A stretch of 64,000 nt of DNA from a bacterium (GTDB lineage: Bacteria; Patescibacteriota; Minisyncoccia; Phycocordibacterales; UBA9973), in NCBI GenBank assembly GCA_021824345.1, contig JAKAKW010000002.1, positions 22,552-86,551 on the forward strand, given 5' to 3'. Position numbers and translations under genes: made by a program. Of this stretch, positions 26,012 to 57,308 are shown piece by piece. How positions within the stretch are numbered: position 1 is the first letter of the stretch; every line of letters begins with the position of its first letter. The notes below the pieces were generated by a model, which searched no databases, was not told the DNA's origin, and saw nothing but the letters and a program-made list of their open reading frames with translations.

Positions 26012-26092
26012 GAAAAAAAGAGGTGGGAGGCCTTGCCTCCCACCAAAAAAGATGTGTTCTGCCAGAACATAAAATAAAAAGTGGGAGGCAAG
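26012..26092. repeat. pair of GC-rich palindromes (family A): GTGGGAGGC-ctt-GCCTCCCAC and GTGGGAGGC-aag-GCCTCCCAC
   Basis: Perfect 9-bp stems at 26013-26033 and 26071-26091. Located inside the N-terminal extension of the uvrC ORF, upstream of its likely start. Confidence 0.7.
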
Positions 26093-26124
26093 GCCTCCCA
26101 CCGGGCCTCGCTGACTTCAAAATC

Positions 26125-27432
26125 ATGAGAGCAGAAACATTTAAAAAATATAATTTGCCTGACAAGCCCGGAGTGTATTTTTTTCTGAAAGGGAAGCAGA
26201 TCCTATACATCGGCAAAGCAACTTCGCTCAAGAGCAGGGTGAAAAGCTATTTCTCCCGCGATCTTTTTGAAACCCGCGGTCCGCTTTTGGTGGAGATGCT
26301 CGCCAAGGCTACTCGCATTGAATGGCAAGCAACCGACAGCGTACTGGAAGCGCTGATCCTTGAAGCCAAACTGATCAAAAAGCGCCAGCCGAAATACAAT
26401 ACGGATCAGAAATCTGACAAAAGCTGGAACTATGTCTGTATTACCAAAGACCCTCTGCCGAAAGTGGTGCTGAAAAGAGAGCGCCAGCTTGAATTTGATG
26501 AAGAGAAAGCATATCGCGCGAGCTACGGGCCGTTCACCCAGGGCGGTCAGCTGCGCGAAGCTCTGAAAATCATTCGGCGCATCTTTCCTTATCTGGATGG
26601 CAGTTCAAAGCAGGGTTATGAGTTTTACAAACAGCTGGGTTTGGCGCCGGATTTGGCAAAAAAGAAAGCGTATTTGGAAAATATAAAAAATATCAGGCTT
26701 CTTTTTGAAGGAAAAAAGAAGAAAATTCTGAAAGACCTGGAGAAGAAGATGAAGGAATTTGCCAAAAGGAGTGAGTTTGAAATGGCCGGAGAATTCAAGC
26801 GCCAGCTTTTCGCCCTTAAGCATATAAATGACATCGCTTTGCTCAAGAACGAAAGCACGGCTTCGCAAAGATATGTTTTTCCTCAGGTCCTCGGTTCTCC
26901 TCGCCATAGGTCTGCTCCTGCGGAGCTGGAAGCTCGGCCAGACCATTCGGAAAGACATATCTTTGCTTTTCCGTTTAGGATTGAGGCATATGACGTTGCC
27001 CACATGGGCGGGAAGAATATGGTGGGGGTGATGACGGTGGTGGAAGACGGGCAGGCGGTAAAAAGCCAGTATCGCAAATTCAAAATCCGTACCAGGGAAG
27101 ATGCCGATGATACCGGCGCATTGCAGGAGGTGCTCTCCCGCCGCTGGGCGCACGAAGAGTGGCAATATCCGAACCTTATAGTGGTGGACGGCAGTACGGC
27201 GCAGATAAATGCGGCAGAAAAGGTTTTGCGGGAGGCCGGCTTGCCCGCAAAAGGCGCCGGCATTCCCGTTCTCTCCGTAGTCAAGGACGAGCGCCATCGC
27301 CCCAAGGCCATAAAAGGGGACAGAACCCTGGCCCGCAAGTATGAAGCTGAGGTTCTCCTTGCCAACAGCGAGGCTCACCGCTTTGCCATCGCCTACCACA
27401 AGAATCTCCGCAACCGGAATTTTTTGAACTAG
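26125..27432 (+). CDS. uvrC: UvrC-like excinuclease (GIY-YIG domain plus RNase H-like endonuclease domain) lacking the C-terminal (HhH)2 domain
   Basis: GIY-YIG motif PGVYFF...ILYIGKA..LKSRV.SYF. YDVAHMGG endonuclease domain. Ends at about 436 aa with no helix-hairpin-helix. Confidence 0.75.
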   Translation: MRAETFKKYNLPDKPGVYFFLKGKQILYIGKATSLKSRVKSYFSRDLFETRGPLLVEMLAKATRIEWQATDSVLEALILEAKLIKKRQPKYNTDQKSDKSWNYVCITKDPLPKVVLKRERQLEFDEEKAYRASYGPFTQGGQLREALKIIRRIFPYLDGSSKQGYEFYKQLGLAPDLAKKKAYLENIKNIRLLFEGKKKKILKDLEKKMKEFAKRSEFEMAGEFKRQLFALKHINDIALLKNESTASQRYVFPQVLGSPRHRSAPAELEARPDHSERHIFAFPFRIEAYDVAHMGGKNMVGVMTVVEDGQAVKSQYRKFKIRTREDADDTGALQEVLSRRWAHEEWQYPNLIVVDGSTAQINAAEKVLREAGLPAKGAGIPVLSVVKDERHRPKAIKGDRTLARKYEAEVLLANSEAHRFAIAYHKNLRNRNFLN

Positions 27433-27457
27433 GGCGTAGGGTACCCCTCCGCCCTAG
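27429..27457. repeat. GC-rich palindrome (family B): ctaGGGCGTAGGGTACCCCTCCGCCCtag
   Basis: Seen directly; one mismatch in the stem. Confidence 0.65.
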
Positions 27458-27488
27458 AATTTTGGTGTAAAGATGGTACTATTAATTT

Positions 27489-29228
27489 ATGACGGCTGAA
27501 ACCAGGCAATGCCAAAACTGCAAGCAAAACTTCGCCATCGCGCCCGATGATTTTTCCTTTTATGAGAAAATCCGCGTTCCTCCGCCGACTTTCTGTCCGG
27601 GGTGTCGGATGCAGAGACGGCTGGCGTATAGGAATACGCATGCATTTTACAAACGGAAGGATAGTTTTTCCGGAAAAGAAATGATTTCCATGTATTCTCC
27701 GGACAAGAACTTAACGGTCATAGACAGGAAGGCCTGGTGGGGAGATAGTTGGGATCCGATAAATTATGGCATTAATTATGATTTTACTAAATCTTTTTTT
27801 TCTCAGTGGAAAGAGTTTCGCGATAAATTTCCCCTGCAAAATTTACAGCAGACAAAATCAGTGAATAGCGAATATTGCAATGTGGCCGAAGAAAGCAAAG
27901 ATTGTTATCTTATATCAGCTTCTTGGAAAAATGAGAGAGTGTTGTATTCCGATTCTATTACTGAAATAAAAGATTCAGCGGATCTGCATGTTGTACGCAG
28001 GAGCCAGTTTTCGTATGAAGATACGGTATGTGCCGACTCTTACCAGCTTTTTTATAGCGAGGACTCTCATAATTGTGTAAATTCATATTTCCTTTTTGAT
28101 TGTCGAAACTGCACTGATTGTTTCATGTGCTCGGGCTTAAGAAGTAAGAGTCACTGTTTTTATAATCAACAATTAAACAAGGAGGAATATCAAAAGAAAA
28201 TGTCTAAAATGGATGTCGGCTCTCATACTCTAATTGAGAATCTGAAGAAAGATTTTGAGGGCATGAAATTGAAATCAATCCGCAAGTTCGCGCACATAGT
28301 AAATTCTTATGATGTTACAGGCGATAATATAGTAAACGCAAAGAATTGCCATATGTGTTTCGACTTGATGAGCGAATTGCAAGATTGCAAATATTCCTTT
28401 TGGGGCGTGCAAGGGAAAGACATATTTGATTGCGGTCCCGGGTTCGGGGTAGTGGAACTGATGTACGAAACCTTCGATGCGGGTCCTGGCGGGAAGAGCA
28501 TCCTTCTGAGCCACAGTATCCACACCTCCGAAAATGTGGAGTATAGTTTTTATTGCCACGATTGCTCTAATATCTTCGCTTGTTTCGGTCTTCGGAACAA
28601 GAGTTACTGCATATTTAACAAGCAGTATTCAAAAGACGAGTATAACGAATTGAGAGAGAAAATTATAAATCATATGAACGAAATGCCATACAAGGACGGC
28701 AAAGAAAACGTTTATAAATATGGCGAATTCTTTCCAGCGGATCTTTCTCCTTTCTGCTATAACGAAACAGTTGCCCAGGATCATTTTCCTATAAAAAAAG
28801 AGGATGCTTTGAAAACCGGCCTTTCCTGGAAAGATATGGAGACGCGCAACTATGTGCCCACTCTTTTTTCAAAAGACATTCCGGATAATATAAAGGATGT
28901 TCCTGACACTATCTTGAGTGAAGTAATAGAATGCGCGCATAAGGGCGCATGTTCTGACAGGTGCACCACTGCTTTTAGAGTTATTCCAAACGAGCTGACT
29001 TTTTATAGAAAGTTCAATATTCCGATTCCTAGGTTATGTTATGGGTGTCGTCATTATGCCAGATTGCACAAGCGCAATCCCATGAAACTCTGGCACAGGC
29101 AGTGCATGTGCGACAAATCCGGCCATGATCATTCAGACAAGTGTCCGAATGAATTTGAAACCAGCTATTCACCCAAGCGGCCGGAAGCGGTATACTGCGA
29201 GCAATGCTATCAAAAAGAAGTTTATTAA
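27489..29228 (+). CDS. Cys-rich protein family member P1 (579 aa) with N- and C-terminal zinc-ribbon modules
   Basis: N-terminal CQNC...CPGCR and C-terminal LCYGCRH...CMC...CEQC. About 35 Cys. Paralog of the genes at 57346-64000. Confidence 0.7.
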   Translation: MTAETRQCQNCKQNFAIAPDDFSFYEKIRVPPPTFCPGCRMQRRLAYRNTHAFYKRKDSFSGKEMISMYSPDKNLTVIDRKAWWGDSWDPINYGINYDFTKSFFSQWKEFRDKFPLQNLQQTKSVNSEYCNVAEESKDCYLISASWKNERVLYSDSITEIKDSADLHVVRRSQFSYEDTVCADSYQLFYSEDSHNCVNSYFLFDCRNCTDCFMCSGLRSKSHCFYNQQLNKEEYQKKMSKMDVGSHTLIENLKKDFEGMKLKSIRKFAHIVNSYDVTGDNIVNAKNCHMCFDLMSELQDCKYSFWGVQGKDIFDCGPGFGVVELMYETFDAGPGGKSILLSHSIHTSENVEYSFYCHDCSNIFACFGLRNKSYCIFNKQYSKDEYNELREKIINHMNEMPYKDGKENVYKYGEFFPADLSPFCYNETVAQDHFPIKKEDALKTGLSWKDMETRNYVPTLFSKDIPDNIKDVPDTILSEVIECAHKGACSDRCTTAFRVIPNELTFYRKFNIPIPRLCYGCRHYARLHKRNPMKLWHRQCMCDKSGHDHSDKCPNEFETSYSPKRPEAVYCEQCYQKEVY

Positions 29229-29251
29229 ATACCGGCGAAGAAAAAAAACAA

Positions 29252-29274
29252 GGGCGGAGGGTACCCCTCCGCCC
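29252..29274. repeat. GC-rich palindrome (family B): GGGCGGAGGGTACCCCTCCGCCC
   Basis: Perfect 10-bp stem. Confidence 0.7.
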
Positions 29275-29293
29275 CAGAAGGAGTGAAAATGTC

Positions 29294-29743
29294 GTGGTGT
29301 TGCACAATATTCGCAGTTCCGAAAATGTCGGGGCGATGTTGCGTACATGCGACGCGGCCGGGGCGGGGAAGGTATATTTAGCCGGCTATACTCCGGCGCC
29401 GACCGACCGCTTCGGCCGGCCGAATAAAAAGATTGCCAAGTCCGCTCTTGGAGCGGAGAAGTTCGTGCCTTGGGAACATAAGAAAACAATCACCGCGCTT
29501 CTTGCCAAGTTGAAAAAGGAAGGATATCAGATCGTCGGCGTGGAGCAGGCGCCGAGTTCCGTGAACTACAAAAAAATTCCGCTGAAAAAGAAAAACGCGT
29601 TTATCATGGGCGCGGAAGTGGCCGGCATTCCCGAAAGCGTGTTAAAAAAATGCGACGTAATCTCCGAGATTCCAATGTATGGGAAAAAAGAGTCGCTGAA
29701 TGTCTCCGTGGCGCTCGGGGTAATGCTGTTCGGGCGCTTATAG
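29294..29743 (+). CDS. SpoU/TrmH-family RNA 2'-O-methyltransferase (SPOUT)
   Basis: VVVLHNIRSSENVGAMLRTCDAAG and C-terminal IPMYGKKESLNVSVALGVMLF. Start uncertain (GTG/TTG near 29294-29300); the ORF is open from 29204 through the palindrome. Confidence 0.6.
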   Translation: MVLHNIRSSENVGAMLRTCDAAGAGKVYLAGYTPAPTDRFGRPNKKIAKSALGAEKFVPWEHKKTITALLAKLKKEGYQIVGVEQAPSSVNYKKIPLKKKNAFIMGAEVAGIPESVLKKCDVISEIPMYGKKESLNVSVALGVMLFGRL

Positions 29744-29784
29744 ATTGCGATGCGCGGCGCCCCGGCCTAGGCCGGGGCGCCGCT

Positions 29785-30696
29785 TCATTTCTGATGCACC
29801 GGACAAAAATGGGCGCTTCGTCCATTTATCACTTTCCGGACAATCTTTCCGCGGCAGCCGGGCTTTCTGCATTTTTCTCCGGTGCGCCGGTAGGCCTGGT
29901 GCTGGGATTGGAATTTTCCCGGCTTCCCGTATACGTTGCGATAGTCGGACATCGAGTCTCCTCCGAAATTTATGCCTTTTTTCAAAGTCGCTTTCATGGC
30001 TTTGAACATTTTTTGCAATTCAGGTTCCGTGACGGCCGAGACCCTTCGTTCCGGGCGCACTCCGGCTCGCCACAAAATTTCATCCGAATATATATTGCCG
30101 ATGCCGGCGATAATCGTCTGGTCCATCAGCGTCGTTTTAATCTTTCCGTTTGGTTTTTTCAACAGCCTCTCCTTAAATTTTCCGAAGGTGAAATTTTTTT
30201 CCAGCGGTTCCGGGCCTATTCCGAATAGGTGCTTGCTGTCATGAGCCATTTTCGTATTGAGAAGGGTAATCTTGCCGAACTTTCGCATGTCCGAAAGGGC
30301 CAGCTGTTTTCCTCCCGAGAGGGTGAAGACCACATGCAGAAAACGGTTGAACGGATCCGCCAAGGGTCCGCGGGGGCTTGCCGGAACCCATTTGTTTTCT
30401 TTCACTGAGAATTTGTATTTTCCGCAAAGCAAATGGCCGGTCATCTTCAAATGCACCAGCATAGTGTGCTTGCCGGAAAGGTTTATCAGAATATTTTTTG
30501 CCCGGCGCTCTACGGACAGGATTTTTTTGCCGGTCACTCCCTTTTTAAACCCGGCGAAATACTTCGGATTTGAAATAGTGTCGCCCTTTCGTTTGTCTTT
30601 GGTGGAAAGGTCGGTCCAGACGTCCAGAATAAAGCGTCCCGCGATTTCTTTTTGCAGTCCTCTTTTGGTCGTTTCCACTTCCGGCAGTTCAGGCAT
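29785..30696 (-). CDS. mutM: formamidopyrimidine-DNA glycosylase (Fpg/MutM)
   Basis: N-terminal MPELPEVE, H2TH region, C-terminal zinc finger CRKPGCRGKI...CPVHQ. Confidence 0.85.
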   Translation of the reverse strand: MPELPEVETTKRGLQKEIAGRFILDVWTDLSTKDKRKGDTISNPKYFAGFKKGVTGKKILSVERRAKNILINLSGKHTMLVHLKMTGHLLCGKYKFSVKENKWVPASPRGPLADPFNRFLHVVFTLSGGKQLALSDMRKFGKITLLNTKMAHDSKHLFGIGPEPLEKNFTFGKFKERLLKKPNGKIKTTLMDQTIIAGIGNIYSDEILWRAGVRPERRVSAVTEPELQKMFKAMKATLKKGINFGGDSMSDYRNVYGKPGKFQSQHQAYRRTGEKCRKPGCRGKIVRKVINGRSAHFCPVHQK

Positions 30697-30723
30697 GGCA
30701 TTAATTACACAACATTTTTAAAA

Positions 30724-30750
30724 ATGGGAGGCAAGGCCTCCCCCTGTTTT
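30724..30750. terminator. family A palindrome GGGAGGC-aag-GCCTCCC flanked by an A-tract and a T-tract; bidirectional terminator-like
   Basis: Seen between fpg and ruvA: aaaaatgggaggcaaggcctccccctgttttt. Confidence 0.55.
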
Positions 30751-31316: not shown

Positions 31317-31370
31317 GCCTATATTTTAGCATCATTTGCAAATTCTCGCTTCTTCTGTTAGATTATACCC

Positions 31371-31622: not shown

Positions 31623-31649
31623 TTTTGCGCAAACCTAATTAAGGCTTAA

Positions 31650-31680
31650 AAGAAAAACCCTCCAATGGAGGGTTTTTCTT
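31650..31680. terminator. bidirectional intrinsic terminator AAAAACCCTCC-aatg-GAGGGTTTTT
   Basis: Between the convergent genes rpsT and the giant surface protein gene. Confidence 0.7.
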
Positions 31681-34600
31681 TTAAGCATGATGTTCTCCCG
31701 AAGGCGGGGCGACTATTACCGCCGCCGATCCATAAGCGGATCTTTCGTACAACCATCGAATCGCCGCAACCAGAAGAAGAATCAAAAGGATCAAGAGCAG
31801 CCAGCCGAGCAAGGTGGCGGGCAGGAAGCCCGTGCCGAAGATTGCCGCCGCTCCGAGCGATACGCCCCTGTCTTCCACCAGGTTTTCAAGATAAGCGAAC
31901 ACTTCCTGCTGGTCTCCGGTTCTCTGTATGGTATAAGCAAGGTCCGCGGTAACCACCACATTTTTGCCGGTTACGGCGCTGTCCAGCACCAGGACTGTAA
32001 CTTGAATGCTTCCTTCCTGCTGGGGAGCAAGGTTGCCGATATTGGCGATCACCATGTTATTTTGCGCGGAGTAAGTTCCGAGAGAAGTGCTGCGCCACTC
32101 AAGCTCTTTCGGCAAGGCCACTCTCAGAAGCACGTTGGTCAGGTTTTCCGTGGAAACATTTTTGTAATAGATGATATAGCTGACCGTGTCTCCCTTGTAT
32201 ATGATTTGGGTGTTGGTTGAGATGGAAAGGAATACGAGAGAAGGCTGAGCAGTCCCTCCGGTGACGGAAGAAGTATTGCTGGAAGTGTTGCTTACCACCG
32301 TGGTGTATCTATACACCGTATTGGATCCCGTATCGTTGGTATACACTATCGTGCTTCCGGTGCGGAAAGTATATATGGTTCCCCTGGAAGTGCCGTATGA
32401 GTTTACGACGACGGCCCGGAAATAATACGTGGTATTCGGAGCCAGGCCGGAAACGCCGGAGAAGAACGGCACCGAAGATACATTGCCCATCGGCTGGGAG
32501 TTGGTGGTAAGTCCGAGAGACTGAGTAGTTCCGTATTCAAAGTATCCGGTAGTGCTGGCATTTACATTGCTTCCGATTACCGCCGTTCCGTTCAAAGTTG
32601 CGGAGGTCTGGCCGATATTGCTGGCCGGCATGGTAATGGCTGTCGGGGCGCAGGTGCCGGTGGTAGAGCAGTCTCCGGGATTGATATATGACCCGGTGGT
32701 AGTAAAGGTGTAAGTATTTCCATATACCACATTGCCGTTTGAATCTCTGGCCGCGGCGCGATAGCGATAAGTAGTATTAGGGGAAAGACTGTAAATAGAC
32801 TGGTTGAAGTTTCCGCCTCCGCTGTATTGGCTGGTTTCGTTTGTTCTATTGTTCAAGTAACCGTTCGGGCCCCATTCAAACCATCTTGAAACGTAGTTGT
32901 TATAACTGTATCCGCTGGTGCTGATGTATCCATTCAAAGTGGCGGAAGTGTCAGTCACTCCGGTGGCGGAATAGGTGCTTACATACAGTTGGTTGTTATT
33001 ATTGCAGTTTCCGTAGTTGTTGTAGTAATTGCAGTTTCCGTTATTGTTGGTGGTGAAGCTTATCTGGTTTCCATATACAATCTGCCCGCTGTCGCCCTGG
33101 GCCACCGCGCGGTAGTAGTAAGTGGTATTCGGAGCCAGGCCGGAGAGGTAATAAGTGAAGCTGGTGCCTCCGGTAGACCCGTAGCTATTCTGGTTGGTTT
33201 GGTTATAGAAGTTTGAATTGGTGCCCCATTGGAACCAAGCCGTGGTGTTGTTCCCGCCGTTCGAGGTGACATATCCGTTCAAAGTTGCGCTGCCGTAGTC
33301 CACATTGGAAGCGTTCTGGGTGCTGACAGTAGGAGTGGTGTTGTTATTATTGTTGGTGTAAATGGTCACCGAACTGCTGGCAGACTGGCCCGAGCTGTTC
33401 TGGCAGGAAATGCTGTAAGTGGTAGTGCCGTAGAGCGTTCCGGTATTGAAGCTTCCGCTGGTGCCCCTGCTTCCGGACCACCCGTTGGTTCCTCCGCTGG
33501 CGCTGCAGGAGGTCGCGTTCTGAGAAGTCCAGCGCACGGTAGTGGAGCCGTTGTTATTTAGATTCGTATTATCCGCGGTAATGTTCACGCTCACCGGGTT
33601 GTTTTGCTGGTTCACGTATACGGTGACTGAATTTGTGGCTACCGCTCCGCTTGAACCTCCGCAGGTAATGGTGAAAGTAGAAGTCTGATACAAGGCTCCC
33701 GTGCTGGCGGAACCTGACATAGGCTTATTGCCGGACCAATTTCCTCCGCTTCCCGTACAATATGTGGCGTTCTGGGAATTCCAATTAAGGGTGGAGGAGT
33801 TTCCATAATCAACTGTTGTCGGATTGGCAGTAATAGTAACCGTCGGGTTGTTCGGAACATTTGTCATGCAGGCGGTGCCGTTCCAGGTGGTTCCATAGGC
33901 GCAGGAAGAGGTTGCCACCTTGCTGTCCAAGACAGAGCCTGAATTCTTCAGATAATAGATAGTGGAAGGATAGGCTACCCACGCGGTAATATTTCCGTTA
34001 GCCTGAGAGGAAAGGGTATTTCCGGTATTGCCGTCCACTACCGTTACGCTGTTTGCATTCTGGGTATTCCAGGAAGCGTTTACCGTACAAGTGCTCGCCC
34101 CGGTAGGAATGGTGCAAGAAGTGGGGGAAACCGTAAGGGTGCCTGTTGCGATGGGCTGGTTGCCGACGTTAACGGTCGCGGATCCGTATGCCACTGCGCC
34201 CGTGGAACCGTAACAATTAATGTTGTATGTAGTACTCTGAGTAAGAGCTCCGGTATTAAAACTTCCGGAAATGCTTTGCTGTCCGTTCGGCGCGTTCGTG
34301 CCTCCGGTGAAACTGCAGTAAGAGGCGTTTTGGGAAGTCCAGTTTATGGTAGAAGTTCCATTGTACTGCACGCTGGTCGGGTTGGCCGTTATGGTAACCG
34401 TAGGATTGTTAGGAACATTCGTCATGCAGGCGGTGCCGTTCCAGCTGGTTCCATAGGCGCAAGACGCGTTGGCGGTCTTCTGATCCAAAGTAACGCCGTT
34501 GTTTTTCAGATAATAAGTCGTGGAAGGATATGCCACCCACACCGTCTGGTAAGAGCTGTTCGGGGAAGTGGAAAGCACGTTGCCCGTATTTCCATCTACA

Positions 34601-38168: not shown

Positions 38169-38216
38169 GCCGGACTGGCGAGGTCAGACCTCGCCAGTCC
38201 GGCATACGTGTCTTTT
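38169..38216. terminator. strong hairpin GCCGGACTGGCGAGGTC-aga-CCTCGCCAGTCCGGC (17-bp stem) flanked by an A-rich tract upstream and a T-tract downstream
   Basis: Downstream of the 38222..38698 gene on the minus strand. Probably terminates the ABC/MFP operon. Confidence 0.65.
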
Positions 38217-40018: not shown

Positions 40019-40839
40019 TTTTTTGCGGGAAGCGTGGGAAGCCTTGCTTCCCCCTTATTATTTTTGTGGTCTGGCAGGACACGTATTTTAGAGGGGGAAG
40101 CAAGGCTTCCCACCGTTCCCGCCGTTTCTTCCTCCGCATTATGATTGGCCACTCTTTTTACATGCGTTCCGCGCTCTTCCAATAATCCATCCTTTATAAA
40201 AAGAATTCTGTCGGCGTGTTCCGCTATGTCCTGTTCGTGGGTTATGAGTACCACTGTCCTTCCAAGTTCGGTGTTTAATTTTTGAAAAGTGCCCAACACT
40301 ATTTCGCTTGTTTTTGAATCCAAGTTTCCCGTCGGTTCGTCCGCCAGAATAAGGGATGGTTGATTTACCAAGGCCCGGGCGATGGCCACGCGTTGAATCT
40401 GTCCTCCGGAAAGCTGGTTTGAAAGGTGCGTAAAGTATTCTTTATCCAATCCGGCGGAGGCGAGCGCTTTTTCAGCTCTTTTTTCCCGCTCTTCAGCATT
40501 TATGCCGTCATATACCAAGGGCAGCATCACGTTTGCCATAACCGTAGTGCGGGGAAGGAGGTTGAATGCCTGGAATACGAATCCGATTTTATTCTTTCGA
40601 ATGTCCGCCAGTTCATCATCGGAAAGAGTGGAAACATCTTTTCCGTCCAAAAGATATTTCCCATTGGTCGGAGTGTCCAGGCATCCGAGAATGTGCATAA
40701 GGGTGGATTTTCCGCTGCCCGACGGCCCCATGATGGCCACAAACTCGCCGTCTTTTATCGTGAAAGACACTCCTCGGAGCGCTGAGAATTCCACGTCTTC
40801 CGTCTTGTATACTTTTGTAATGTTTTGTACTTCTATCAT
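40015..40839 (-). CDS. ABC transporter ATP-binding protein (MacB/LolD-like) with a C-terminal extension of about 45 aa that reads through two palindromic repeats
   Basis: Walker A GPSGSGKST, signature LSGGQIQRVAIARAL, Walker B LILADEPTGNLD. The tail ...GEARLPTLPAKK is encoded by the palindromes at 40036-40111. ATGA overlap with the permease gene. Confidence 0.85.
   Translation of the reverse strand: MIEVQNITKVYKTEDVEFSALRGVSFTIKDGEFVAIMGPSGSGKSTLMHILGCLDTPTNGKYLLDGKDVSTLSDDELADIRKNKIGFVFQAFNLLPRTTVMANVMLPLVYDGINAEEREKRAEKALASAGLDKEYFTHLSNQLSGGQIQRVAIARALVNQPSLILADEPTGNLDSKTSEIVLGTFQKLNTELGRTVVLITHEQDIAEHADRILFIKDGLLEERGTHVKRVANHNAEEETAGTVGSLASPSKIRVLPDHKNNKGEARLPTLPAKK
40036..40111. repeat. 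pair of family A-variant palindromes GGGAAGC-ctt-GCTTCCC and GGGAAGC-aag-GCTTCCC
   Basis: 40036-40052 and 40095-40111. Same paired arrangement with inverted loops as at 26012-26092. Confidence 0.7.
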
Positions 40840-42473
40840 CTTCCCAATCTTGTCGCTCCTCCTCTTGCGGCATTAAGTATGCTTGGCGCGGAAGCGGAGC
40901 TGGTACTGCTTCCGGAAATTGTTTTGGTTACGATTTTGTCTCCCTCTTTCAGTCCGGATATGATTTCAGTGGAAGTGCTGTCGGAAATTCCGGTTTGCAC
41001 CGACACATCTTTCGGCGGAATCGCGGAAGGAGATCCTTGCTGGCCGAGAGCCGGATCGGGCAGAGCTGAGTCAAACATCTCCACATAGCTTGCGCCATTT
41101 GACGTTTTTACCGCTCCGTTCGGTACGGTGAGAACGTCTTGTTTTACAGCCGTGATTATGGCGGCATTCACAGTCATGCCCGGTTTTACCCGCTGGTCTT
41201 CCGTATCAAAAGAAATTTTTACGTCATAGCTCACCACTCCCTGAGAAACGGTGCCGATTGTGTCTATTTCCGCCACTTTTCCGGCCACGGTCAGATCCGG
41301 TAGCGCGTCGAAAGTCAGAGTTGCTTTTTGCCCGAGCTGTATCTTTGCGGCGTCCACTTCGTTTAGGGAAATAACCGCTGTCTTATCGGCAGTGATGATG
41401 GTGCCTATGGCAGTTCCGGTGCTGGCGTTATCTCCGACCTTTCCGTCTACCGCGGCCATTATTCCGCTGAAGGGCGCCGTGACATAATAATCCGCCAAAT
41501 TGCTCTTTGCGTCATCCAGGGCGTTCTGCGCTTTTTGTACCGAAAGCTGGCTGGACTGGATGTCCAAACCGGCGGTTGACTGCGAATCCCTCGCCGATTG
41601 GATGCTCGCCTGATCCGCAAGCAGGCTGGTTATGTCGGAGTTCACGGTATCGGCATAACCGGAGAGCGAACTCTGGGTGGAAGTATAGTTGCTGGCGCGG
41701 TTGGTGCTAATGGACAGATAATCCGCCAAGTCGCGGGTGCTTTTCACGGCATTAAAGAGCAGTTTTGAGGCGGACAGGGTTTCTTGCAGCATTTTGTCTA
41801 TCTCCGCATTGGAAGAACTGCTGTTGATGTTCGCATAGTTCAGCGTGGCCTGATCGAAGGCGCTGTTCGCCTTGTAGTATGCATCTTCCGCCGCCGTGCG
41901 ATAGCCGGCGCCGGTGTTTCCGCCGTTTGACCTCGCCGTATCCAAAGACATTGTTTTTTCCGCCAAGACACTTTGAACGTCATCTACAATAGAGGGTTCG
42001 TCCTGGAACGCCGAAGCGATGCCGCTTAATGCCGCGGTATACGCTTTTTCCAAACCCTGGTTCAAGTTCTGGCTGGAATTCTGGAGTTCCAGCTGTTGCA
42101 GGGACAATTTTGCGCTGTCCAAGCTCACTTGCGCGTCTCGCACTGTTTTTTCCGCGTCCGTGGTATCTATGGAAAAAAGAGTCTGCCCCTCCCGCACACT
42201 GTCTCCCGGATTTACTCCGACATAGGTTATGGTTCCGGATACTTTCGGCTTAATGTCGATTTGGTTTTCCGCAGACACTTGGCCGGATCCTTCCACGGAG
42301 GATACGATAGTTCCGCGGCTTACCGTGCCGAGCGCATATAATGTTTCTCCCGCCGTGCTGGTGGCATTTTTATATATCGCGTATCCGGCATATATGACGG
42401 CGATTGCCGCAACAATGCTTATGATCTTGTGCGCCCAAACAAACAGCTTTATTTTTTGAAAAAATTTAATCAT
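40836..42473 (-). CDS. periplasmic adaptor / membrane fusion protein (HlyD/MacA family), long coiled-coil variant
   Basis: N-terminal TM helix. Biotinyl-lipoyl-like beta segments flank long coiled coils; C-terminal beta-barrel. Overlaps the ATPase gene start by 4 nt. Confidence 0.75.
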   Translation of the reverse strand: MIKFFQKIKLFVWAHKIISIVAAIAVIYAGYAIYKNATSTAGETLYALGTVSRGTIVSSVEGSGQVSAENQIDIKPKVSGTITYVGVNPGDSVREGQTLFSIDTTDAEKTVRDAQVSLDSAKLSLQQLELQNSSQNLNQGLEKAYTAALSGIASAFQDEPSIVDDVQSVLAEKTMSLDTARSNGGNTGAGYRTAAEDAYYKANSAFDQATLNYANINSSSSNAEIDKMLQETLSASKLLFNAVKSTRDLADYLSISTNRASNYTSTQSSLSGYADTVNSDITSLLADQASIQSARDSQSTAGLDIQSSQLSVQKAQNALDDAKSNLADYYVTAPFSGIMAAVDGKVGDNASTGTAIGTIITADKTAVISLNEVDAAKIQLGQKATLTFDALPDLTVAGKVAEIDTIGTVSQGVVSYDVKISFDTEDQRVKPGMTVNAAIITAVKQDVLTVPNGAVKTSNGASYVEMFDSALPDPALGQQGSPSAIPPKDVSVQTGISDSTSTEIISGLKEGDKIVTKTISGSSTSSASAPSILNAARGGATRLGR

Positions 42474-43492: not shown

Positions 43493-43527
43493 GTAGAAGG
43501 GCGGAGGGTAACCCTCCGCCCTTCTAC
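43493..43527. repeat. family B palindrome with an extended 16-bp stem GTAGAAGGGCGGAGGG-taa-CCCTCCGCCCTTCTAC
   Basis: Seen between the sigma and the putative anti-sigma genes. Confidence 0.7.
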
Positions 43528-44083: not shown

Positions 44084-44170
44084 GAGGGTAACAATACCAC
44101 GCCGTCAATGCCGCAGGGCATTTTATTAGAACGCAAATTGGTCACAACTCTCGCCCTTGCAGCAGCTCGG

Positions 44171-44217
44171 GCTCGGTCGCACCATTTGCTTCGCAAATGG
44201 TGCTCCCGGCAGGAATC
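44171..44217. repeat. 47-bp direct repeat copy containing the last 20 nt of tRNA-Arg plus 27 nt of 3' flank (second copy at 44319-44365, which includes the tRNA 3' end)
   Basis: gctcggtcgcaccatttgcttcgcaaatggtgctcccggcaggaatc occurs identically at both positions. Confidence 0.7.
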
Positions 44218-44345
44218 TCCCCCTACGGGGGCGGGTGCTTTTCCATTCGCTGGCGGTTTACCGCCAGCTCATAAGGAAAAGCCTTTCGATTCCCGCACGC
44301 GGGCAAAGCAGTTTGCCCGCTCGGTCGCACCATTTGCTTCGCAAA

Positions 44346-44420
44346 TGGTGCTCCCGGCAGGAATCGAACCTGCATCACAACTTCCGCAAAGTTGCATTCT
44401 ATCCATTGAACTACGGGAGC
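44346..44420 (-). tRNA. tRNA-Arg with an apparent GCG anticodon (unusual), encoded CCA
   Basis: Hand-folded: acceptor GCTCCCG/CGGGAGC, D-arm GTTC-AATGGATA-GAAT, anticodon stem CAACT/AGTTG with loop TTGCGGA, T-arm GCAGG-TTCGATT-CCTGC, then ACCA. Confidence 0.6.
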
Positions 44421-44513
44421 GTTCAAGCGTTTTAAGCGCTTGCCTGCCTGCCGGCAGGCTAATTTAAGTTAGCAGTTTTCCGGAGAAAAATCCACTGTAA
44501 TTTTCGTTGGAAG

Positions 44514-48991: not shown

Positions 48992-48994
48992 TGT

Positions 48995-51004: not shown

Positions 51005-51038
51005 AGGCACTCGGGTCACCCGATAAAAAAACTTTGGG

Positions 51039-51121: not shown

Positions 51122-51178
51122 ATTCCGACACCGCAAAAGGTTTCGGCGATGTCCATAATTTATGATAACAAATTCAAG

Positions 51179-51445: not shown

Positions 51446-51480
51446 ACCAGAAAGTCGGTTTTTATGCTAGCATCAAGCCA

Positions 51481-52193: not shown

Positions 52194-52259
52194 AAAAGAA
52201 AGCGGCGGGCGCCGCCCGGGCGTAGCCGGGCGGCGCCCTTTGTCGTATAATATACGCAT

Positions 52260-53099
52260 ATGTTCAAAAGCTCGCATATAGGCATTTCTTTTTCCGACTC
52301 GGCCGTGAACTTCATAAAGCTTTCAAAAAAGAAAGGCGAATTTTTCCTGGACAATTATGAGGAGATAAAACTTCCTCCGGGCGCGGTGGCGGACGGAAAG
52401 GCTGAAAATTTTAAAGCGGTGGCCTCGGCCATAAGCTCCCTGCGGCAGAAATACGGCATAAAGTTCGCCCGAGTCGTCCTGCCGGAAGAAGAGCAGGATA
52501 TTTTTACAGACTATCTTGATGATTGGAAAGAGGCTTTGAACGGCACCGGAGTGTATGTTCAATCGTATGAACCCCTTGGACAGGCGCTTTTGCGGGCGGT
52601 TATAAAAAAAGGCGATCGCGGAACATACATGGTAGTGAACGTAAACGAAGGGAGCACTGATGTGTTTGTGGCGGATCAGGGGAGAGTGGTGCTCGGCTCC
52701 GTATTAGACACCGGGGGAGAAATGCTCGTGCGCATCGCAGAAAAAGAAAGCATCAGGCGCAGTTCCGGGCTTAGCCGGAGCGTAGTCGTGGCTGAAATAT
52801 CGTCATCCCTGATCGGGGGGATAACCATCCTCCGCGAAGAATTATCAAAAATTTTTATGAACTGGAATAATCTGCGCTACGAGGACGGGAGCAGAATGCC
52901 GGAAATCAGAAAGATCATACTTTGCGGAAAGAGCGCGCACCTGAAAGGCTTAGATGAGTTTCTTTCGGTCAGTTTTAAGATCAAAGCAGAGCTGGCAAAC
53001 GTTTGGACCAATGTTTTTGATCCCGCGGAAAGAGTTCCGGATCTGACTTTCCGGGAATCTCTATCCTACGCCGGCGCTATCGGCGCGGCCCTGAAGTAA
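52260..53099 (+). CDS. type IV pilus assembly protein PilM-like (actin-like ATPase fold)
   Basis: HIGISFSDSAVNFIKL start and C-terminal GAIGAAL, typical of PilM. Confidence 0.5.
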   Translation: MFKSSHIGISFSDSAVNFIKLSKKKGEFFLDNYEEIKLPPGAVADGKAENFKAVASAISSLRQKYGIKFARVVLPEEEQDIFTDYLDDWKEALNGTGVYVQSYEPLGQALLRAVIKKGDRGTYMVVNVNEGSTDVFVADQGRVVLGSVLDTGGEMLVRIAEKESIRRSSGLSRSVVVAEISSSLIGGITILREELSKIFMNWNNLRYEDGSRMPEIRKIILCGKSAHLKGLDEFLSVSFKIKAELANVWTNVFDPAERVPDLTFRESLSYAGAIGAALK

Positions 53100-53180
53100 C
53101 CGAATACTCCGCCGATTTGAAGGCCAGAGATTTTCCGCATTGTTTTCGGCCGTTTTTATGCTAAATTTAGGAATACCTAC

Positions 53181-53254
53181 GCGCGCTTAGCTCAGTTGGT
53201 TAGAGCGTCCCGTTTACACCGGGAAGGTCCAGGGTTCGAATCCTTGAGCGCGCA
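53181..53254 (+). tRNA. tRNA-Val (anticodon UAC)
   Basis: Hand-folded: GCGCGCT acceptor, GCTCAGTTGGTTAGAGC D-arm, anticodon loop TTTACAC, T-arm CCAGGGTTCGAATCCTTG. Confidence 0.8.
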
Positions 53255-53258
53255 CCCC

Positions 53259-53333
53259 GCCCCTGTAGTTAAATGGATATAACTGCGGACTTCTAAGCCG
53301 CTATTCGAGGTTCGATTCCTCGCGGGGGCACCA
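53259..53333 (+). tRNA. tRNA-Arg (anticodon UCU), encoded CCA
   Basis: Hand-folded: acceptor GCCCCTG/CGGGGGC, anticodon loop CTTCTAA, T-arm CGAGG-TTCGATT-CCTCG, then ACCA. Confidence 0.7.
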
Positions 53334-54019
53334 TGAAAAGATTTGCAAGCCGGTATTCAATATACAAAGACAAGAAAAATCTGGCGCGACTGGCCGCGAG
53401 TGTCCTCTTTCTCGCTGTCAGCATTTTCGCCACGTATTTTGCCATATTGTATGCGACTGATCACGCAAGCTTCCCCGTAACTGACATAATATTAAGCAAT
53501 ATTCCAACATACAACGTTGATGCGATATTTTTGTATGGGCCGGTGATATTCTGGACGGTGATCGGCGTATATCTGATATTTTTTGCTCCGGAAAAGATTC
53601 CTTTCTCCTTAAAGACGATCGCTCTTTTTCTCCTAATCCGTTCCGCATTTCTTTGCATGACTCATATCGGGCCTTTCCCTTCTCACGCCTTGATACGCGG
53701 GGGAGGAATCATAGGGGTGTTCAATTCCGGAGACGATTTGTTCTTTTCAAGCCATACCGGCTTGCCGTTTCTTATGGCCCTAATATTATGGGACAAAAAA
53801 CCATGGCGCATTTTCTGCATAATCGGCTCGATATTCTTCGGCATTATAGTGCTCATGGCCCATTTGCATTATTCCATAGACGTCTTTGCCGCCTTTTTCA
53901 TAACTTATGCCATTTATCGCATTGCTTTCCGATTCTTGAAGAGGGAGAAATTGCTTTTTGATAAGCATGTGGAGAACGATCCCGTCGTATCTGCGCTTAA
54001 TTCCGCCGATTTGGAATAA
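53333..54019 (+). CDS. PAP2-superfamily membrane phosphatase-like protein
   Basis: Six TM helices. PAP2 motif 2-like FFSSHTG and motif 3-like AHLHYSIDV. ATG overlaps the last base of the tRNA-Arg CCA. Confidence 0.55.
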   Translation: MKRFASRYSIYKDKKNLARLAASVLFLAVSIFATYFAILYATDHASFPVTDIILSNIPTYNVDAIFLYGPVIFWTVIGVYLIFFAPEKIPFSLKTIALFLLIRSAFLCMTHIGPFPSHALIRGGGIIGVFNSGDDLFFSSHTGLPFLMALILWDKKPWRIFCIIGSIFFGIIVLMAHLHYSIDVFAAFFITYAIYRIAFRFLKREKLLFDKHVENDPVVSALNSADLE

Positions 54020-54049
54020 ATCTTCCTGCAGGTATACTATATTGTAATC

Positions 54050-55369
54050 ATGCCAGAGAAAGAAATGCCGGTTCCGCTTTCCGTTGAAGACAAAGCCCTT
54101 ATCGAACGAGTGGCCAAAGACGCCGTACGCAATCTTGAGAAATGCTACCAGCCGGGTTTCGGCGTTTTTCCCACAGGCGACCCGAATGACGTTTTTTACA
54201 ACATGCTCTGGTCTCGCGATTTCTCTCATGCCGGCGGATATTTTGCTGTTGGAAATATCAATGCCCTTCTGGATTCATTAAACACGATTTTTTCTTTTCA
54301 GAAGAAGGACGGATCTTTGCCATACAGAGTTGAGAAAAAGAGATTCATACTTGAGTACTTCCTTCGCGTTTTGTTCGGGATTGACCCCGGCGCCTTGAGG
54401 AAAATCGGGATTGACTTTGTGACCAGAAGGAAAAAGAGGCCCATATATGAAGGAGAACGAGGTAATAATGCGGAAGATACCATTCCTTCCGTAATTTCGT
54501 CAATCGGGGAATTTTTTATGGCTTCCAAAGAGAGAAGAGAGTTTGCGGAGAATAATTATGAAAAGATCAGGTTGGCCATTGAAAATTTCATAAAAAGGAT
54601 CGATCCGGAAGACGGCCTGGAAAGCTCTGGGGTGAATAATCCAGATTGGGCGGACAGCATAAAACGCGGAGGAAAAAAATTAAGTACGGTAAACATTCGT
54701 TGGGAAATCGCTCTGGAGAGGGCTGAAAAAATTTCGGCGGAGCTGGGAATGGGGGAAGCGAAAAAATACGATGCGCTGGCAAAAAAAGCAAGGAAAGGAA
54801 TAATGGACAAATTATATAACGAGAAGGATCACTATTTCAGAACCGGAGAAGGGGAAGAAAGAATGGATGCCGTTGCGTCAATTCTCGGCTGCCTTCATAT
54901 CTTGCCGGTGGAAGAATCTGTAAGAGTGCAGGAGTCAATGAGGAAGCGCTTGTCCTGCAAGTCCGGCCTAAGAAATTTTTATCCTCCATATCCCAAAAAA
55001 CGCCTTTCCTTTATCCTGCGTATCATCGGCATGGGCGGATATCACAATGAAGCGGTGTGGCCCTGGGTTGCCGCGGTCAATATCCATGCAAAAATTAAAA
55101 TAGCGCAAGAACATCCGGACAAGGAAGTCAGAGAGCAATACAGAAATGAATCAGTGCGGGACTTGCTCAACCTTGCCGCGCTTTTTGAGTCAGCCGGGGG
55201 AGCTTATGAAGTATTCGACCCCGACAGGCCCGAGCAATATCGGAAGCTTCGGACCGGAATAATGAAGTATCAGGTTCCAAAGAATTTCATGGGAAACCTC
55301 GCTTCTTATCAGAGCGTTTATCATCGTTTAAAAAAGCTGGGCTGGATTTCCAGCGACATATCAAAATGA
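54050..55369 (+). CDS. (alpha/alpha)6-barrel glycoside hydrolase candidate (debranching enzyme / GH63-like)
   Basis: GDPNDVFYNMLWSRD and later acidic motifs. Weak family-level call. Confidence 0.4.
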   Translation: MPEKEMPVPLSVEDKALIERVAKDAVRNLEKCYQPGFGVFPTGDPNDVFYNMLWSRDFSHAGGYFAVGNINALLDSLNTIFSFQKKDGSLPYRVEKKRFILEYFLRVLFGIDPGALRKIGIDFVTRRKKRPIYEGERGNNAEDTIPSVISSIGEFFMASKERREFAENNYEKIRLAIENFIKRIDPEDGLESSGVNNPDWADSIKRGGKKLSTVNIRWEIALERAEKISAELGMGEAKKYDALAKKARKGIMDKLYNEKDHYFRTGEGEERMDAVASILGCLHILPVEESVRVQESMRKRLSCKSGLRNFYPPYPKKRLSFILRIIGMGGYHNEAVWPWVAAVNIHAKIKIAQEHPDKEVREQYRNESVRDLLNLAALFESAGGAYEVFDPDRPEQYRKLRTGIMKYQVPKNFMGNLASYQSVYHRLKKLGWISSDISK

Positions 55370-56484
55370 AAATTGCTTATTTCAACGGCTCATTCAAGAA
55401 AGAGGACGGCGTGGTGAGGGTTATTTTGGCGCTGGTGGAGCAGGCAAAAAAACAGGGAGTGGAGACGGCAATAGTCGCAACCAAGTCAAAAGACACTGAA
55501 GTCTCTCCGGTTCCATTAATGGAGATAAATTCGGTGGAAATTCCTTTCTATAGGGATTACTCCCTGGCTTTTCCCGGGATCAAAGGTTTTGAAAAAAAGC
55601 TTGACGAATGGAAGCCGGATATTATCCACATAAACAGCCCCGATACTGTCGGATGGGCTGGTTTGAAATATGCGAAAAAAAATAATATTCCCATAGTGGC
55701 CACTTTTCACACGTATTTTTCTCGATACCTCAGATATTATCACCTATCATTTGCCGAGTCCTTCGCATGGCATCTTCAAAAAAAACTTTATAAGCGCGTC
55801 AGTTTTACTACCGCTCCCTCAACCTCCACGGCCGAAGATATAAAAAAGCACGGCGTACCGAACGTGTATCCGGTTCCCTGGGGCGTGGATTTCAAAAGTT
55901 TTAACCCCGCCTTTCGGTCCCAAGAGTGGCGAACGAAAATTTTCGGGGAAAGCAACAAGGAAAAAGCGATAATACTCTGCATATGTCGGCTGGTATCATA
56001 TAAAGATACCCGGATTCTCTCCGAGGTATACAAGCTCCTTAAGAAAAACAATAAAGATTTTTCTATGGTAATTGCGGGCAACGGACCGGAAAAAGAAAAA
56101 ATGAAATCCGCGATGCCGGAAGCCATTTTTCTCGGGCATCTTGAAGGCAAGGAACTTTCCGAGGCGTACGCTTCGTCAGATATTTTTCTTTTTCCGTCCC
56201 AAACGGAAACATTCGGAAATGTGAATGTGGAAGCCATTGCGTCCGGCCTGCCGCTGGTGGTGGCGAATTCCGGAGGTCCGGCAATGTTTGTCCAACGAGG
56301 CAACGGGTTTGCCGTCCGCCCGGGAGATGCAAATGATTTTTATGAAAAAGTATGCGTAATTTTAGATGATCAAGATTTGCGAAGAAAAATGAGCCAAGCC
56401 AGCCTGGAATACTCCAAGCAGTTCACCTGGGAAAAGACTTTCAGCGAACTGATGTCTCTATATTCGAAGTTTTTAAAAAAATAA
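55366..56484 (+). CDS. GT4-family glycosyltransferase
   Basis: C-terminal domain EAIASGLPLVVANSGGPAMFV and FPSQTETFGNV (E-x7-E motif). Confidence 0.75.
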   Translation: MKIAYFNGSFKKEDGVVRVILALVEQAKKQGVETAIVATKSKDTEVSPVPLMEINSVEIPFYRDYSLAFPGIKGFEKKLDEWKPDIIHINSPDTVGWAGLKYAKKNNIPIVATFHTYFSRYLRYYHLSFAESFAWHLQKKLYKRVSFTTAPSTSTAEDIKKHGVPNVYPVPWGVDFKSFNPAFRSQEWRTKIFGESNKEKAIILCICRLVSYKDTRILSEVYKLLKKNNKDFSMVIAGNGPEKEKMKSAMPEAIFLGHLEGKELSEAYASSDIFLFPSQTETFGNVNVEAIASGLPLVVANSGGPAMFVQRGNGFAVRPGDANDFYEKVCVILDDQDLRRKMSQASLEYSKQFTWEKTFSELMSLYSKFLKK

Positions 56485-56529
56485 AAATGCCCTCCTTTTA
56501 AATGGCATTTTTGTGTTAACATATTCCAT

Positions 56530-57243
56530 ATGAAAATCCTCTACGAAGACGAAGACGTACTGGCCGTAGAAAAGCCCTCCGGGCTCATGGTGCATCCGGA
56601 TGGCCGCAGTTCTGAACCCGCTGTGACCGATTGGGTTTTGAAGCATTATCCGGAATTGAAAGGAGTGGGGGAGCCGGTGACATTCGGGGAGGAGGAAATA
56701 GACCGCCCCGGGATAGTGCACCGGCTGGACCGCGAAACTTCCGGCGTTTTGCTTATTATGAAAAATCCGAAAGCCTTCGCGTATTTCAAGAAGCAGTTCA
56801 TGGAAAGGAAAATAAAGAAGAGATACGCGGCAATAGTATACGGACATGTGAAAAGCGACAGGGGGAAAGTGGACAAGCCCATCGGCCGAAGCCCTTCGGA
56901 TTTTCGCCGCAAACTTGCGGGCCGGGGCGCGAAAGGGGAGCTTCGAGAGGCCGTAACAGAATATAGCGTATTGAAAAGATTTGAAGACAAGGCCGGCGGA
57001 AAATACAGTTTCTTGGAAGTCCGCCCCCGCACCGGGCGAACCCATCAGATCCGAGTGCACATGAAATTTCTGAACCACCCGGTAGTGTGCGACTCCCTGT
57101 ATGCCTCGAAAAACGCATGTCCCTCCGAGCTTGGGCGCCTGGCGCTTCATGCGGAGTCCATAGAATTCAAAACTCCTCACGGCAAAACGGTGAAAGTGGA
57201 ATCGCCCTTGCCGGCGGAATTCAAAAAATTCTCCGGGCTATAA
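56530..57243 (+). CDS. RluA-family pseudouridine synthase
   Basis: HRLDRETSGVLLIMKN catalytic Asp motif. TGRTHQIRVH. Confidence 0.8.
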   Translation: MKILYEDEDVLAVEKPSGLMVHPDGRSSEPAVTDWVLKHYPELKGVGEPVTFGEEEIDRPGIVHRLDRETSGVLLIMKNPKAFAYFKKQFMERKIKKRYAAIVYGHVKSDRGKVDKPIGRSPSDFRRKLAGRGAKGELREAVTEYSVLKRFEDKAGGKYSFLEVRPRTGRTHQIRVHMKFLNHPVVCDSLYASKNACPSELGRLALHAESIEFKTPHGKTVKVESPLPAEFKKFSGL

Positions 57244-57267
57244 TATTGGTGCGGAGGGAAGACGGAG

Positions 57268-57308
57268 AGGGCGGAGGGTAACCCCTGCCTGCCGGCAGGC
57301 AGGCTCCG
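57268..57308. repeat. composite nested palindrome: outer family B stem GGGCGGAG...CTCCGCCC enclosing the perfect palindrome CCTGCCTGCCGGCAGGCAGG
   Basis: Seen directly upstream of the Cys-rich paralog array. Confidence 0.65.

Follow-up and report, generated by a model that had tools for sequence, protein, structure and literature searches.

Lineage-specific REP/REPIN-like palindromic repeats at gene junctions of a patescibacterial genome

Repetitive extragenic palindromic (REP) sequences and REP doublets forming hairpins (REPINs) are mobilised by tyrosine transposases associated with REPs (RAYTs) in Pseudomonas and Enterobacteria (Bertels & Rainey 2011, PMC3116915, PMC3337134). REPINs consist of two inverted REPs and a hairpin-forming spacer, possess a central asymmetry that marks their orientation, are found with variable spacings and leave singlets as remnants (PMC3337134). 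For Patescibacteria, also referred to as the candidate phyla radiation (CPR), no description of REP, REPIN or miniature inverted-repeat transposable element (MITE)-type repeats was found in the literature searched. Here, we describe GC-rich palindromic repeats in a stretch of 64,000 nucleotides (nt) from a patescibacterial genome of the lineage UBA9973 (GenBank assembly GCA_021824345.1, contig JAKAKW010000002.1, positions 22,552 to 86,551 of the forward strand), which is hereafter called the window and whose own numbering is used throughout. By their anatomy, these elements are best termed REP/REPIN-like, and with respect to mobility in the strict sense they are candidates. With a probability of roughly 0.55, they represent lineage-specific, non-autonomous palindromic families of the REP/REPIN type, which have settled in gene junctions since the split from the sister species.

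In total, 81 kb of this genome were examined, namely the window and two flanking extensions of 8.6 kb and 8.5 kb. The source names of the protein homologs are those of Patescibacteria (Paceibacteria- or Nomurabacteria-like). The loci of the window are 100% identical in the NCBI metagenome-assembled genome GCA_027428375.1 (contig DAICBP010000002.1), in two ENA assemblies and in Logan assemblies; since independent assemblies carry identical loci, the hairpins are not assembly artefacts. An earlier note, made from the sequence alone, had described two families of hairpins, A and B. Direct reading confirmed the hairpins of both families at the sites given there, and when perfect GC-rich stems of 7 bp or more were surveyed independently, the same set emerged, in addition to unrelated strong hairpins at 29754-29783, 31644-31686, 38169-38203 and 52207-52238. 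Two of its details had to be revised: there are at least three families, the third of which, family C, is represented at 57284-57303 and 44442-44459, and the family B coordinates hold at 27, 29 and 43 kb, whereas the composite at 57 kb spans 57269-57311 and not 57268-57308. The core pattern of family A, allowing up to two mismatches, was matched five times against an expectation of 0.18, and five matches were reached in none of 100 shuffles. For family B, three matches with up to three mismatches were found against an expectation of 0.00, and the composite at 57 kb constitutes a fourth copy. Short GC-rich palindromes are thus repeated in five copies of family A, four of family B and two of family C, to which one decayed B copy outside the window is added. 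Relative to the upstream gene, every copy either follows the stop codon at a distance of 0-25 nt or has taken its place. Ten of the 12 copies are found between genes, and the remaining two, the REPs of the unit at 40 kb, inside the open reading frame (ORF) of an ATPase; the first 15 nt of the unit at 26 kb lie within uvrA.

The two pairs of family A hairpins are copies of one unit of approximately 110 nt, which is composed of a REP with the loop ctt, a spacer of about 37 nt and a REP with the loop aag. The two REPs, copies of one palindrome of 21-23 nt, are mutually inverted, because the asymmetric loops read ctt and then aag. The first unit (25993-26102, + strand, 110 nt) occupies the uvrA/uvrC junction and comprises a left flank beginning with GCGGGAAGAA, REP(ctt) at 26022-26044 (GGTGGGAGGC-ctt-GCCTCCCACC), an A-rich spacer of 36 nt with an apical mini-hairpin and REP(aag) at 26081-26101 (GTGGGAGGC-aag-GCCTCCCAC). 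The second (40024-40137, - strand, 114 nt) is inserted into an ABC ATPase gene without a shift of the frame, two codons ahead of the stop, and encodes AEEETAGTVGSLASPSKIRVLPDHKNNKGEARLPTLPA. Its REPs are located at 40034-40054 and 40093-40113, with the cores GGGAAGC-ctt-GCTTCCC (40036-40052) and GGGAAGC-aag-GCTTCCC (40095-40111) and with extra outer arms at 40025-40031 and 40116-40122. Both units align across their entire length, from the left flank (GCGGGAAGAA versus GCGGAGGAAGAA) through REP(ctt) and the spacer to REP(aag). The non-palindromic spacers are identical at 29 of 39 positions (74%), a score that was reached by none of 5000 shuffles, and they are similar in one relative orientation only. 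As judged from this alignment, the family A unit has been shown to be duplicated as a whole between the two loci. Each unit carries terminal inverted repeats of 22-23 bp, as expected of a MITE, and adopts one long hairpin fold that has a stem of 22-23 bp and a small hairpin at its apex; the folding energies range from -60 to -69 kcal/mol, with z scores from -8.5 to -9.6 (-60 kcal/mol and z -9.4 for the 26-kb unit, -65 kcal/mol and z -9.0 for the 40-kb unit). The left edge reads AAT|GCGG at all three occupied doublet sites, at 25990-25996, at 40135-40140 (- strand) and at positions 4025-4031 of strain L112, and the right edges differ. AAT|GCGG may be a motif of the target, or it may represent the bases with which the unit begins. 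The fifth A hairpin, GGGAGGC-aag-GCCTCCC, is a singlet without strand assignment (30726-30742) between ruvA and fpg, both of which are encoded on the - strand. It appears to be a decayed or solo copy and, in this respect, matches the singlet remnants of REPINs.

Comparison with strains and relatives revealed that the sites of these hairpins are occupied in some lineages and empty in others. At the ATPase/permease junction, L126, whose ATPase is 89% identical, has the ancestral ATGA overlap (...GCA AAA TTA TGA) without the insert, and L113 (ATPase 86% identical) has a 4-nt spacer without an A unit. Strain L112, which stems from another sample, carries a spacer-less A version of 69 nt at the ATPase site, inside a locally divergent tract. 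Its stems there are of the GGGAGGC type, in contrast to GGGAAGC in the window. At the ruvA/fpg junction, the two variants have changed places: GGGAGGC is found in the window, and L005, a contig from the same sample as L112, carries GTGGGAAGC-ctt-GCTTCCCAC in this position. Hence, the same stem position swaps between G-C and A-T from strain to strain, with both arms changed and pairing remaining perfect. The ruvA/fpg spacer is 1-2 nt long and empty in the sister species (1 nt in its contig L115) and in L113. The sister species, whose UvrC is 77% identical and whose GC content of 47.7% is similar to that of the window, contains no A or B hairpin in about 30 kb of syntenic DNA. There, spoU directly follows uvrC, and the entire block 27433-29293, which comprises hairpins and the gene P1 described below, is absent; its uvrA/uvrC spacer consists of an unrelated structured sequence of 70 nt. 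A and B hairpins were also not found in a third lineage, L125. The orthologous junctions are empty or filled with unrelated sequence in L115-L118, L113 and L126, and the versions differ between strains. The earlier note had named identical loci in relatives as the mark of ordinary conserved terminators; since neither the sister species nor more distant relatives carry them at the orthologous junctions, the hairpins are not of this kind. A search with the SpoU protein for the uvrA/uvrC and P1 loci of a divergent strain returned identical contigs only.

Several observations made during these comparisons concern the same syntenic blocks. In the otherwise near-identical strain L112, a divergent tract of about 560 nt is found in hlyD (window 41523-42084), and the ATPase gene ends in a second such tract (approximately 80% nucleotide identity). 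This points to recombination between homologous sequences of this strain and a lineage less closely related. In the sister species, the ruvA/rpsT spacer (L115 13371-13542) contains an element of about 170 nt with terminal inverted repeats of 24 bp (GGTTCCGAACCGTGCATAGTGT...) and a DNA fold with a z score of -9.7. The counterpart in the window (31317-31370) is 54 nt long and empty, so that, within this block, the sister species is equipped with a different palindromic insert of its own. Furthermore, the coding region of the sister uvrC contains a perfect palindrome with a 12-bp stem (L115 10775-10802, TTGAAATCTGCC-accc-GGCAGATTTCAA), which corresponds to eight extra amino acids (LKSATRQI) in a variable linker compared with the window protein.

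The hairpins had been proposed to remodel the ends of neighbouring genes, and this is, as judged by the homologs, real for three genes, namely those of the ATPase, UvrA and SpoU, and not for UvrC. In the ATPase, a stop-free, in-frame insertion of 114 nt separates ...ANHN from KK*, and the ATGA overlap with the permease gene is kept. The reading frame indeed continues through the element without a stop codon before ATGA; the resulting tail, however, is 40 amino acids long, 38 of which are inserted, and not about 45 as had been estimated. Conservation of the tail had been suggested as a check: the tail is absent from the homologs, the best 120 listed of which cover only about 85% of the query and are nearly all 232-243 amino acids long. 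UvrA is four residues longer at its C-terminus than the protein of the sister species and ends with ...VLRNAGRI* instead of ...VLKK*; its last four codons and its new stop are provided by the first 15 nt of the A unit. In SpoU, the first six or so codons are replaced and homology starts at residue 5 of the sister protein; the original start is lost, and GTG 29294 is the present start codon, preceded by a new GGAG that adjoins the end of the B hairpin. The longest ORFs of uvrC and spoU do begin in or before the elements, as previously noted, but the N-terminal extensions do not appear to be translated. The 179-amino-acid spoU ORF is, in view of this start, an artefact. All UvrC homologs start at the position of ATG 26125 (435 amino acids), and the 34-amino-acid extension is therefore an ORF or annotation artefact; the public UvrC call (469 amino acids, P0121; 26023-27432) takes as its start a GTG that belongs to the first hairpin of family A. 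The peptides of the UvrC extension and the ATPase tail are similar and share a frame of the A unit. This similarity was considered as a further feature and judged not meaningful, as one to two of the three frames are open and the UvrC homologs start downstream.

Family B is closely associated with a family of cysteine-rich proteins, P1 to P7. These seven paralogs of about 580 amino acids are encoded at 27489-29228 (P1, + strand, 579 amino acids) and at 57346-64000, and the array continues for about 4 kb in L119. Their sole recognisable feature are treble-clef zinc fingers at the termini (PF23477), past which no Pfam, NCBIfam or PDB match was obtained, and an AlphaFold2 model of a P protein reached a predicted local distance difference test (pLDDT) score of 43. 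The B copies flank P1 and precede the P2 array, just as had been reported. The first (27430-27456, + strand) overlaps the uvrC stop and forms the hairpin TAGGGCGTAGGG-tac-CCCTCCGCCCTA at 27432-27454 with one mismatch; it lies 33 nt upstream of the P1 ATG and is followed by a weak T-run on the sense strand. The second (29252-29274, - strand; GGGCGGAGGG-tac-CCCTCCGCCC) begins 24 nt past the P1 stop, has its T-run on the antisense strand, seen as an A-run preceding it on the + strand, and leads directly to the GGAG and GTG of spoU. Thus, the B units around P1 are inverted, with their T-rich tails facing inward. The third copy (43493-43527, - strand) follows the gene of an extracytoplasmic function (ECF) sigma factor; its stem spans 16 bp (GTAGAAGGGCGGAGGG-tta-...), and its T6 tail lies on the sense strand. 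Its hairpin is identical in strain L112 and looks like a canonical terminator. The fourth copy (57269-57311, + strand) is located between rluA and P2; its core is identical to that at 43499-43521 and is broken by an exact 20-nt palindrome of family C (CCTGCCTGCCGGCAGGCAGG, 57284-57303, no strand assignment), which lies in the 3' arm of the B hairpin. Deleting these 20 nt exactly regenerates the core GGGCGGAGGGTAACCCTCCGCCC of the 43-kb type, and the second copy of family C, GCCTGCC-tgcc-GGCAGGC (44442-44459, likewise without strand), which is located 22 nt upstream of a tRNA-Arg gene, matches the nested copy at 18 of 18 positions. As read from this repair, the composite is a clean nested insertion of a third family into a family B copy. 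The decayed B copy follows P6, just beyond the window. A 5' tetranucleotide is found at two B copies, GTAG at 43 kb and CTAG at 27 kb, and at neither of the copies at 29 and 57 kb. The idea that P1 is a cassette bounded by integron attC-like sites was ruled out, as no hairpins are present between P2, P3, P4 and P5.

The orientation of the T-runs divides the copies into two groups. On the sense strand, T-runs are found at four loci, pronounced at the 43-kb B copy and the A singlet and weak at the 27-kb and 57-kb B copies; these four copies probably act in transcription termination or insulation. The A singlet looks like a bidirectional terminator, because T- and A-runs flank it on either side. 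At the two A units and the 29-kb B copy, the T-run is located on the antisense strand, and all three reside inside co-directional gene pairs. This is the arrangement expected if insertions that terminate operons were purged; with three loci, such purging is suggestive only. Among the unrelated hairpins mentioned above, the one at 31644-31686 is a perfect palindrome with a 20-bp stem (GCTTAAAAGAAAAACCCTCC-aat-GGAGGGTTTTTCTTTTAAGC) between the convergent genes rpsT and a 1562-amino-acid DUF11 repeat protein. It includes the GGAGG/CCTCC core common to families A and B and represents a textbook bidirectional terminator.

In the first part of the region concerned, the genes are arranged in the order uvrB-uvrA-[A doublet]-uvrC-[B]-P1-[B]-spoU, followed by fpg-[A singlet]-ruvA. 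Further downstream, the order is sigma factor-[B]-...-hlyD-ABC ATPase-[A doublet]-macB permease and, further on, rluA-[B with nested C]-P2...P7. The first 18.4 kb or so of the window are occupied by a recently acquired low-GC island (32-44%; 1-18485), which continues upstream in L122 and in which hairpins of families A, B and C are absent. The island ends at the gene of a tyrosine integrase (17334-18281, - strand) next to a tRNA-Lys gene (18412-18485), and the cargo includes type I restriction-modification genes, Vsr, a fusion of a LexA-like protein and a DNA methylase, a radical SAM protein and four paralogous repeats of about 138 nt (3894-8338); BrnT and CopG are encoded upstream. A second trace of integration might be seen at the tRNA-Arg(gcg) gene (44346-44420, - strand), whose 3' 20 nt are duplicated together with the downstream hairpin (44168-44215 versus 44320-44366). 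The duplicates enclose a GC-rich segment of 105 nt with two hairpins, and the arrangement looks like the attachment (att)-type scar of a small element that was integrated or excised.

How could REP/REPIN-type elements of this lineage have spread? The A units would move as single-stranded DNA hairpins, driven either by a trans-acting enzyme, for which a RAYT or IS200/IS605-like Y1 transposase is the obvious candidate, or by template switching or recombination between copies. Selection would then retain only tolerated insertions, that is, those with antisense T tails within operons (uvrA/uvrC, ATPase/permease, P1/spoU) and, inside an ORF, those that preserve the frame and are free of stop codons. 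At uvrA, the unit has replaced the native stop, and at the ATPase gene it was inserted in frame just upstream of the stop, which stayed. The copies with sense T tails, after the sigma factor gene, ruvA, uvrC and rluA, would most likely serve as intrinsic terminators or insulators, and all copies would form very stable structures at mRNA 3' ends. Several results, however, weigh against this reading. The genes of the 81 kb examined include no transposase or RAYT, and an insertion sequence (IS), including any with the termini of the A unit, was likewise not found there. In REP/REPIN-RAYT systems, tens to hundreds of copies are scattered throughout the genome; here, all 12 copies lie within 31 kb (26 to 58 kb) of the 81 kb, and the two extensions contributed no copy except the decayed B. 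Comparison with the empty sites revealed no target-site duplication around the two A units, and a conserved 5' GTAG is missing from family A, the copies of which begin with GTGG, GGGG or ATGG. A genome-collection scan detected the 17-nt core of family A, GGGAGGCAAGGCCTCCC, as a singleton in at least 106 unrelated genomes, in about 30 of them with A/T-rich, terminator-like flanks. Since such singletons are common in unrelated genomes, a single copy of the A core is not diagnostic. The exact A 21-mer had one, unrelated match in JGI metagenomes, IMG/VR contained no match for it or for the B 23-mer, and a six-frame peptide search for further A units embedded in ORFs recovered the known uvrC ORF only. 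Moreover, four of the five B copies adjoin P genes, and the sequences downstream of the 27-kb and 57-kb B copies are homologous past the hairpin up to the starts of P1 and P2, including TGGTA...TTAATT.ATG. Family B may therefore owe its copies to gene duplication plus constraint; it is mostly tied to the P paralogs and may spread with P gene cassettes rather than on its own.

This last point leads to a rival explanation for all of the hairpins, according to which they are terminators or insulators of gene cassettes that were multiplied by duplication, translocation and gene conversion without dedicated transposition, family B being a terminator-plus-promoter module of the P genes and family A being homogenised by conversion. 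The homologous sequence behind the B copies, with its extended -10-like TGGTA and TTAATT.ATG, the decayed copy after P6, the four sense-strand T tails, the clustering within 31 kb and the style of the unique terminators of this genome, which likewise have perfect GC stems and loops of 3-6 nt, are all in agreement with such an origin. It does not account well for antisense T tails inside three co-directional gene pairs, for an A unit inside an ORF and at sites that are 0-4-nt junctions in relatives, or for the nested 20-nt insertion, which is no duplication product of its surroundings. In addition, identity between P1 and the remaining P proteins amounts to just 33-42% whereas the B hairpins are identical at 22-23 of 23 positions, and simple co-duplication therefore fails to explain the identity of the hairpins. 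Taken together, we regard a cassette origin as doubtful, although it deserves the most serious attention among the alternatives. A more radical reduction, namely that the hairpins are ordinary intrinsic terminators which arose independently in place and resemble each other through favoured stems of the GGAGG/CCTCC type, could draw on the widespread A-core singletons with their A/T-rich flanks and on the location of all copies behind stop codons. Nevertheless, sequences are identical over 21-23 nt and, in family A, similarity extends through a non-palindromic spacer, the number of matches expected by chance is about zero, the hairpins are absent from the sister species and three loci have the wrong orientation. 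Recurrence, spacer identity and absence from the sister species effectively refute independent origin in place, which is the least probable of all explanations considered here.

Other alternatives retain mobility or function and assign them differently. The A units could be classical MITEs, deletion derivatives of an IS moved via their terminal inverted repeats by a DDE transposase with target-site duplications. Their 22-23-bp terminal inverted repeats and their size of about 80-110 nt fit this description, and the same syntenic block of the sister species contains the different element of about 170 nt, whose terminal inverted repeats measure 24 bp. Each terminal repeat is itself a full palindrome, however, and singlets and 20-nt units exist, which is REP-like; direct repeats are missing at both A units in comparison with the empty sites, and the 81 kb contain neither an IS nor a transposase. 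A MITE origin in the strict sense is thus improbable. It is tempting to speculate about a REPIN-like system native to Patescibacteria, in which units of about 110 nt insert in frame after AAT at the last codons of genes without a classical RAYT and the P proteins act as partner or mobilising proteins. The position of P1 between inverted B hairpins resembles that of RAYT genes between REPs, and P1 is absent from the sister species; we consider this proposal very improbable. Slightly more remote still is the possibility that the double hairpins are functional structured RNAs, either cis-regulators of translational coupling or small antisense RNAs that end at the T-tailed hairpins. Very stable folds, compensatory stem changes between strains and a location directly before the start codons of uvrC and the permease gene would be in line with this function, but the paired changes are no proof of selection at the RNA level, because palindromes self-correct at the DNA level. 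The units are absent from close relatives with the same operons, and evidence for a promoter is missing. In Rfam, no family matched the hairpins above threshold; gathering and permissive thresholds yielded only tRNAs and sub-threshold matches to generic microRNA-precursor hairpins. Lineage-specific REP/REPIN-type families thus remain the preferred reading.

The genomes of Patescibacteria are very small and tightly packed, and here elements enter junctions of 0-4 nt within the time that separates sister species. Stop and start codons are exchanged and tails of peptide appended; the elements would thereby allow rapid change of gene ends and the insulation of operons, and they could serve as strain-level markers. 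They are also a source of annotation error, as illustrated by the public call of a 469-amino-acid UvrC that begins inside one of them. The discovery of a cognate enzyme would widen the range of hosts in which the REP/RAYT type of association occurs.

Among the known systems, REPs and REPINs provide the closest parallel. Common features are short GC-rich palindromes, inverted doublets with an asymmetry that reads ctt/aag here and TT/AA in strain SBW25, units of about 80-110 nt that fold as one hairpin, a hairpin-forming spacer whose length varies between copies, solo copies, species-specific families and a position just 3' of genes. The elements described here differ in their patescibacterial host, in that 12 copies and no RAYT were seen in the 81 kb, in their perfect palindromes with 3-nt loops, in GTGG in place of GTAG in family A and in one unit that lies in frame inside a coding region. 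The last feature recalls the Rickettsia palindromic elements, which Ogata et al. reportedly described in 2000 as numerous inserts of 100-150 bp that are often internal to genes. As in that system, an in-frame palindromic insert adds a peptide and leaves the protein intact, in this case 38 amino acids near the C-terminus of the ATPase and a 23-amino-acid version in L112; here, however, only one of 12 copies is necessarily translated, two codons from the stop and at a single locus. Outside the bacteria, mobile GC clusters are said to occur in yeast mitochondrial DNA (Weiller et al., 1989) and double-hairpin elements in that of Allomyces (Paquin et al., 2000), both reportedly organellar and of other sequence families. 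They share with the patescibacterial elements the form of short GC-rich hairpins or double hairpins in an AT-richer, compact genome, the location at gene termini and in spacers, nested insertions and presence or absence between close relatives. The likeness shown is one of form. Intrinsic terminators resemble the elements in their GC-rich stem, short loop and T-run directly after stop codons, a description which the 43-kb B copy and the A singlet fit and the 27-kb and 57-kb B copies fit weakly; they differ from them in that the T-run is on the wrong strand at three loci and that the sequences are repeated across loci and absent from the corresponding sites of relatives. Correia and ERIC (enterobacterial repetitive intergenic consensus) elements, which are bacterial MITEs, are similar in their size of about 100 nt, their terminal inverted repeats, their insertion at gene junctions and their effects on neighbouring gene ends, but no target-site duplication was detected here, and the termini are REP-like palindromes that also occur alone. 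Taken together, the elements are not a new phenomenon but extend a known one, that of REPs and REPINs, to a new group of bacteria.

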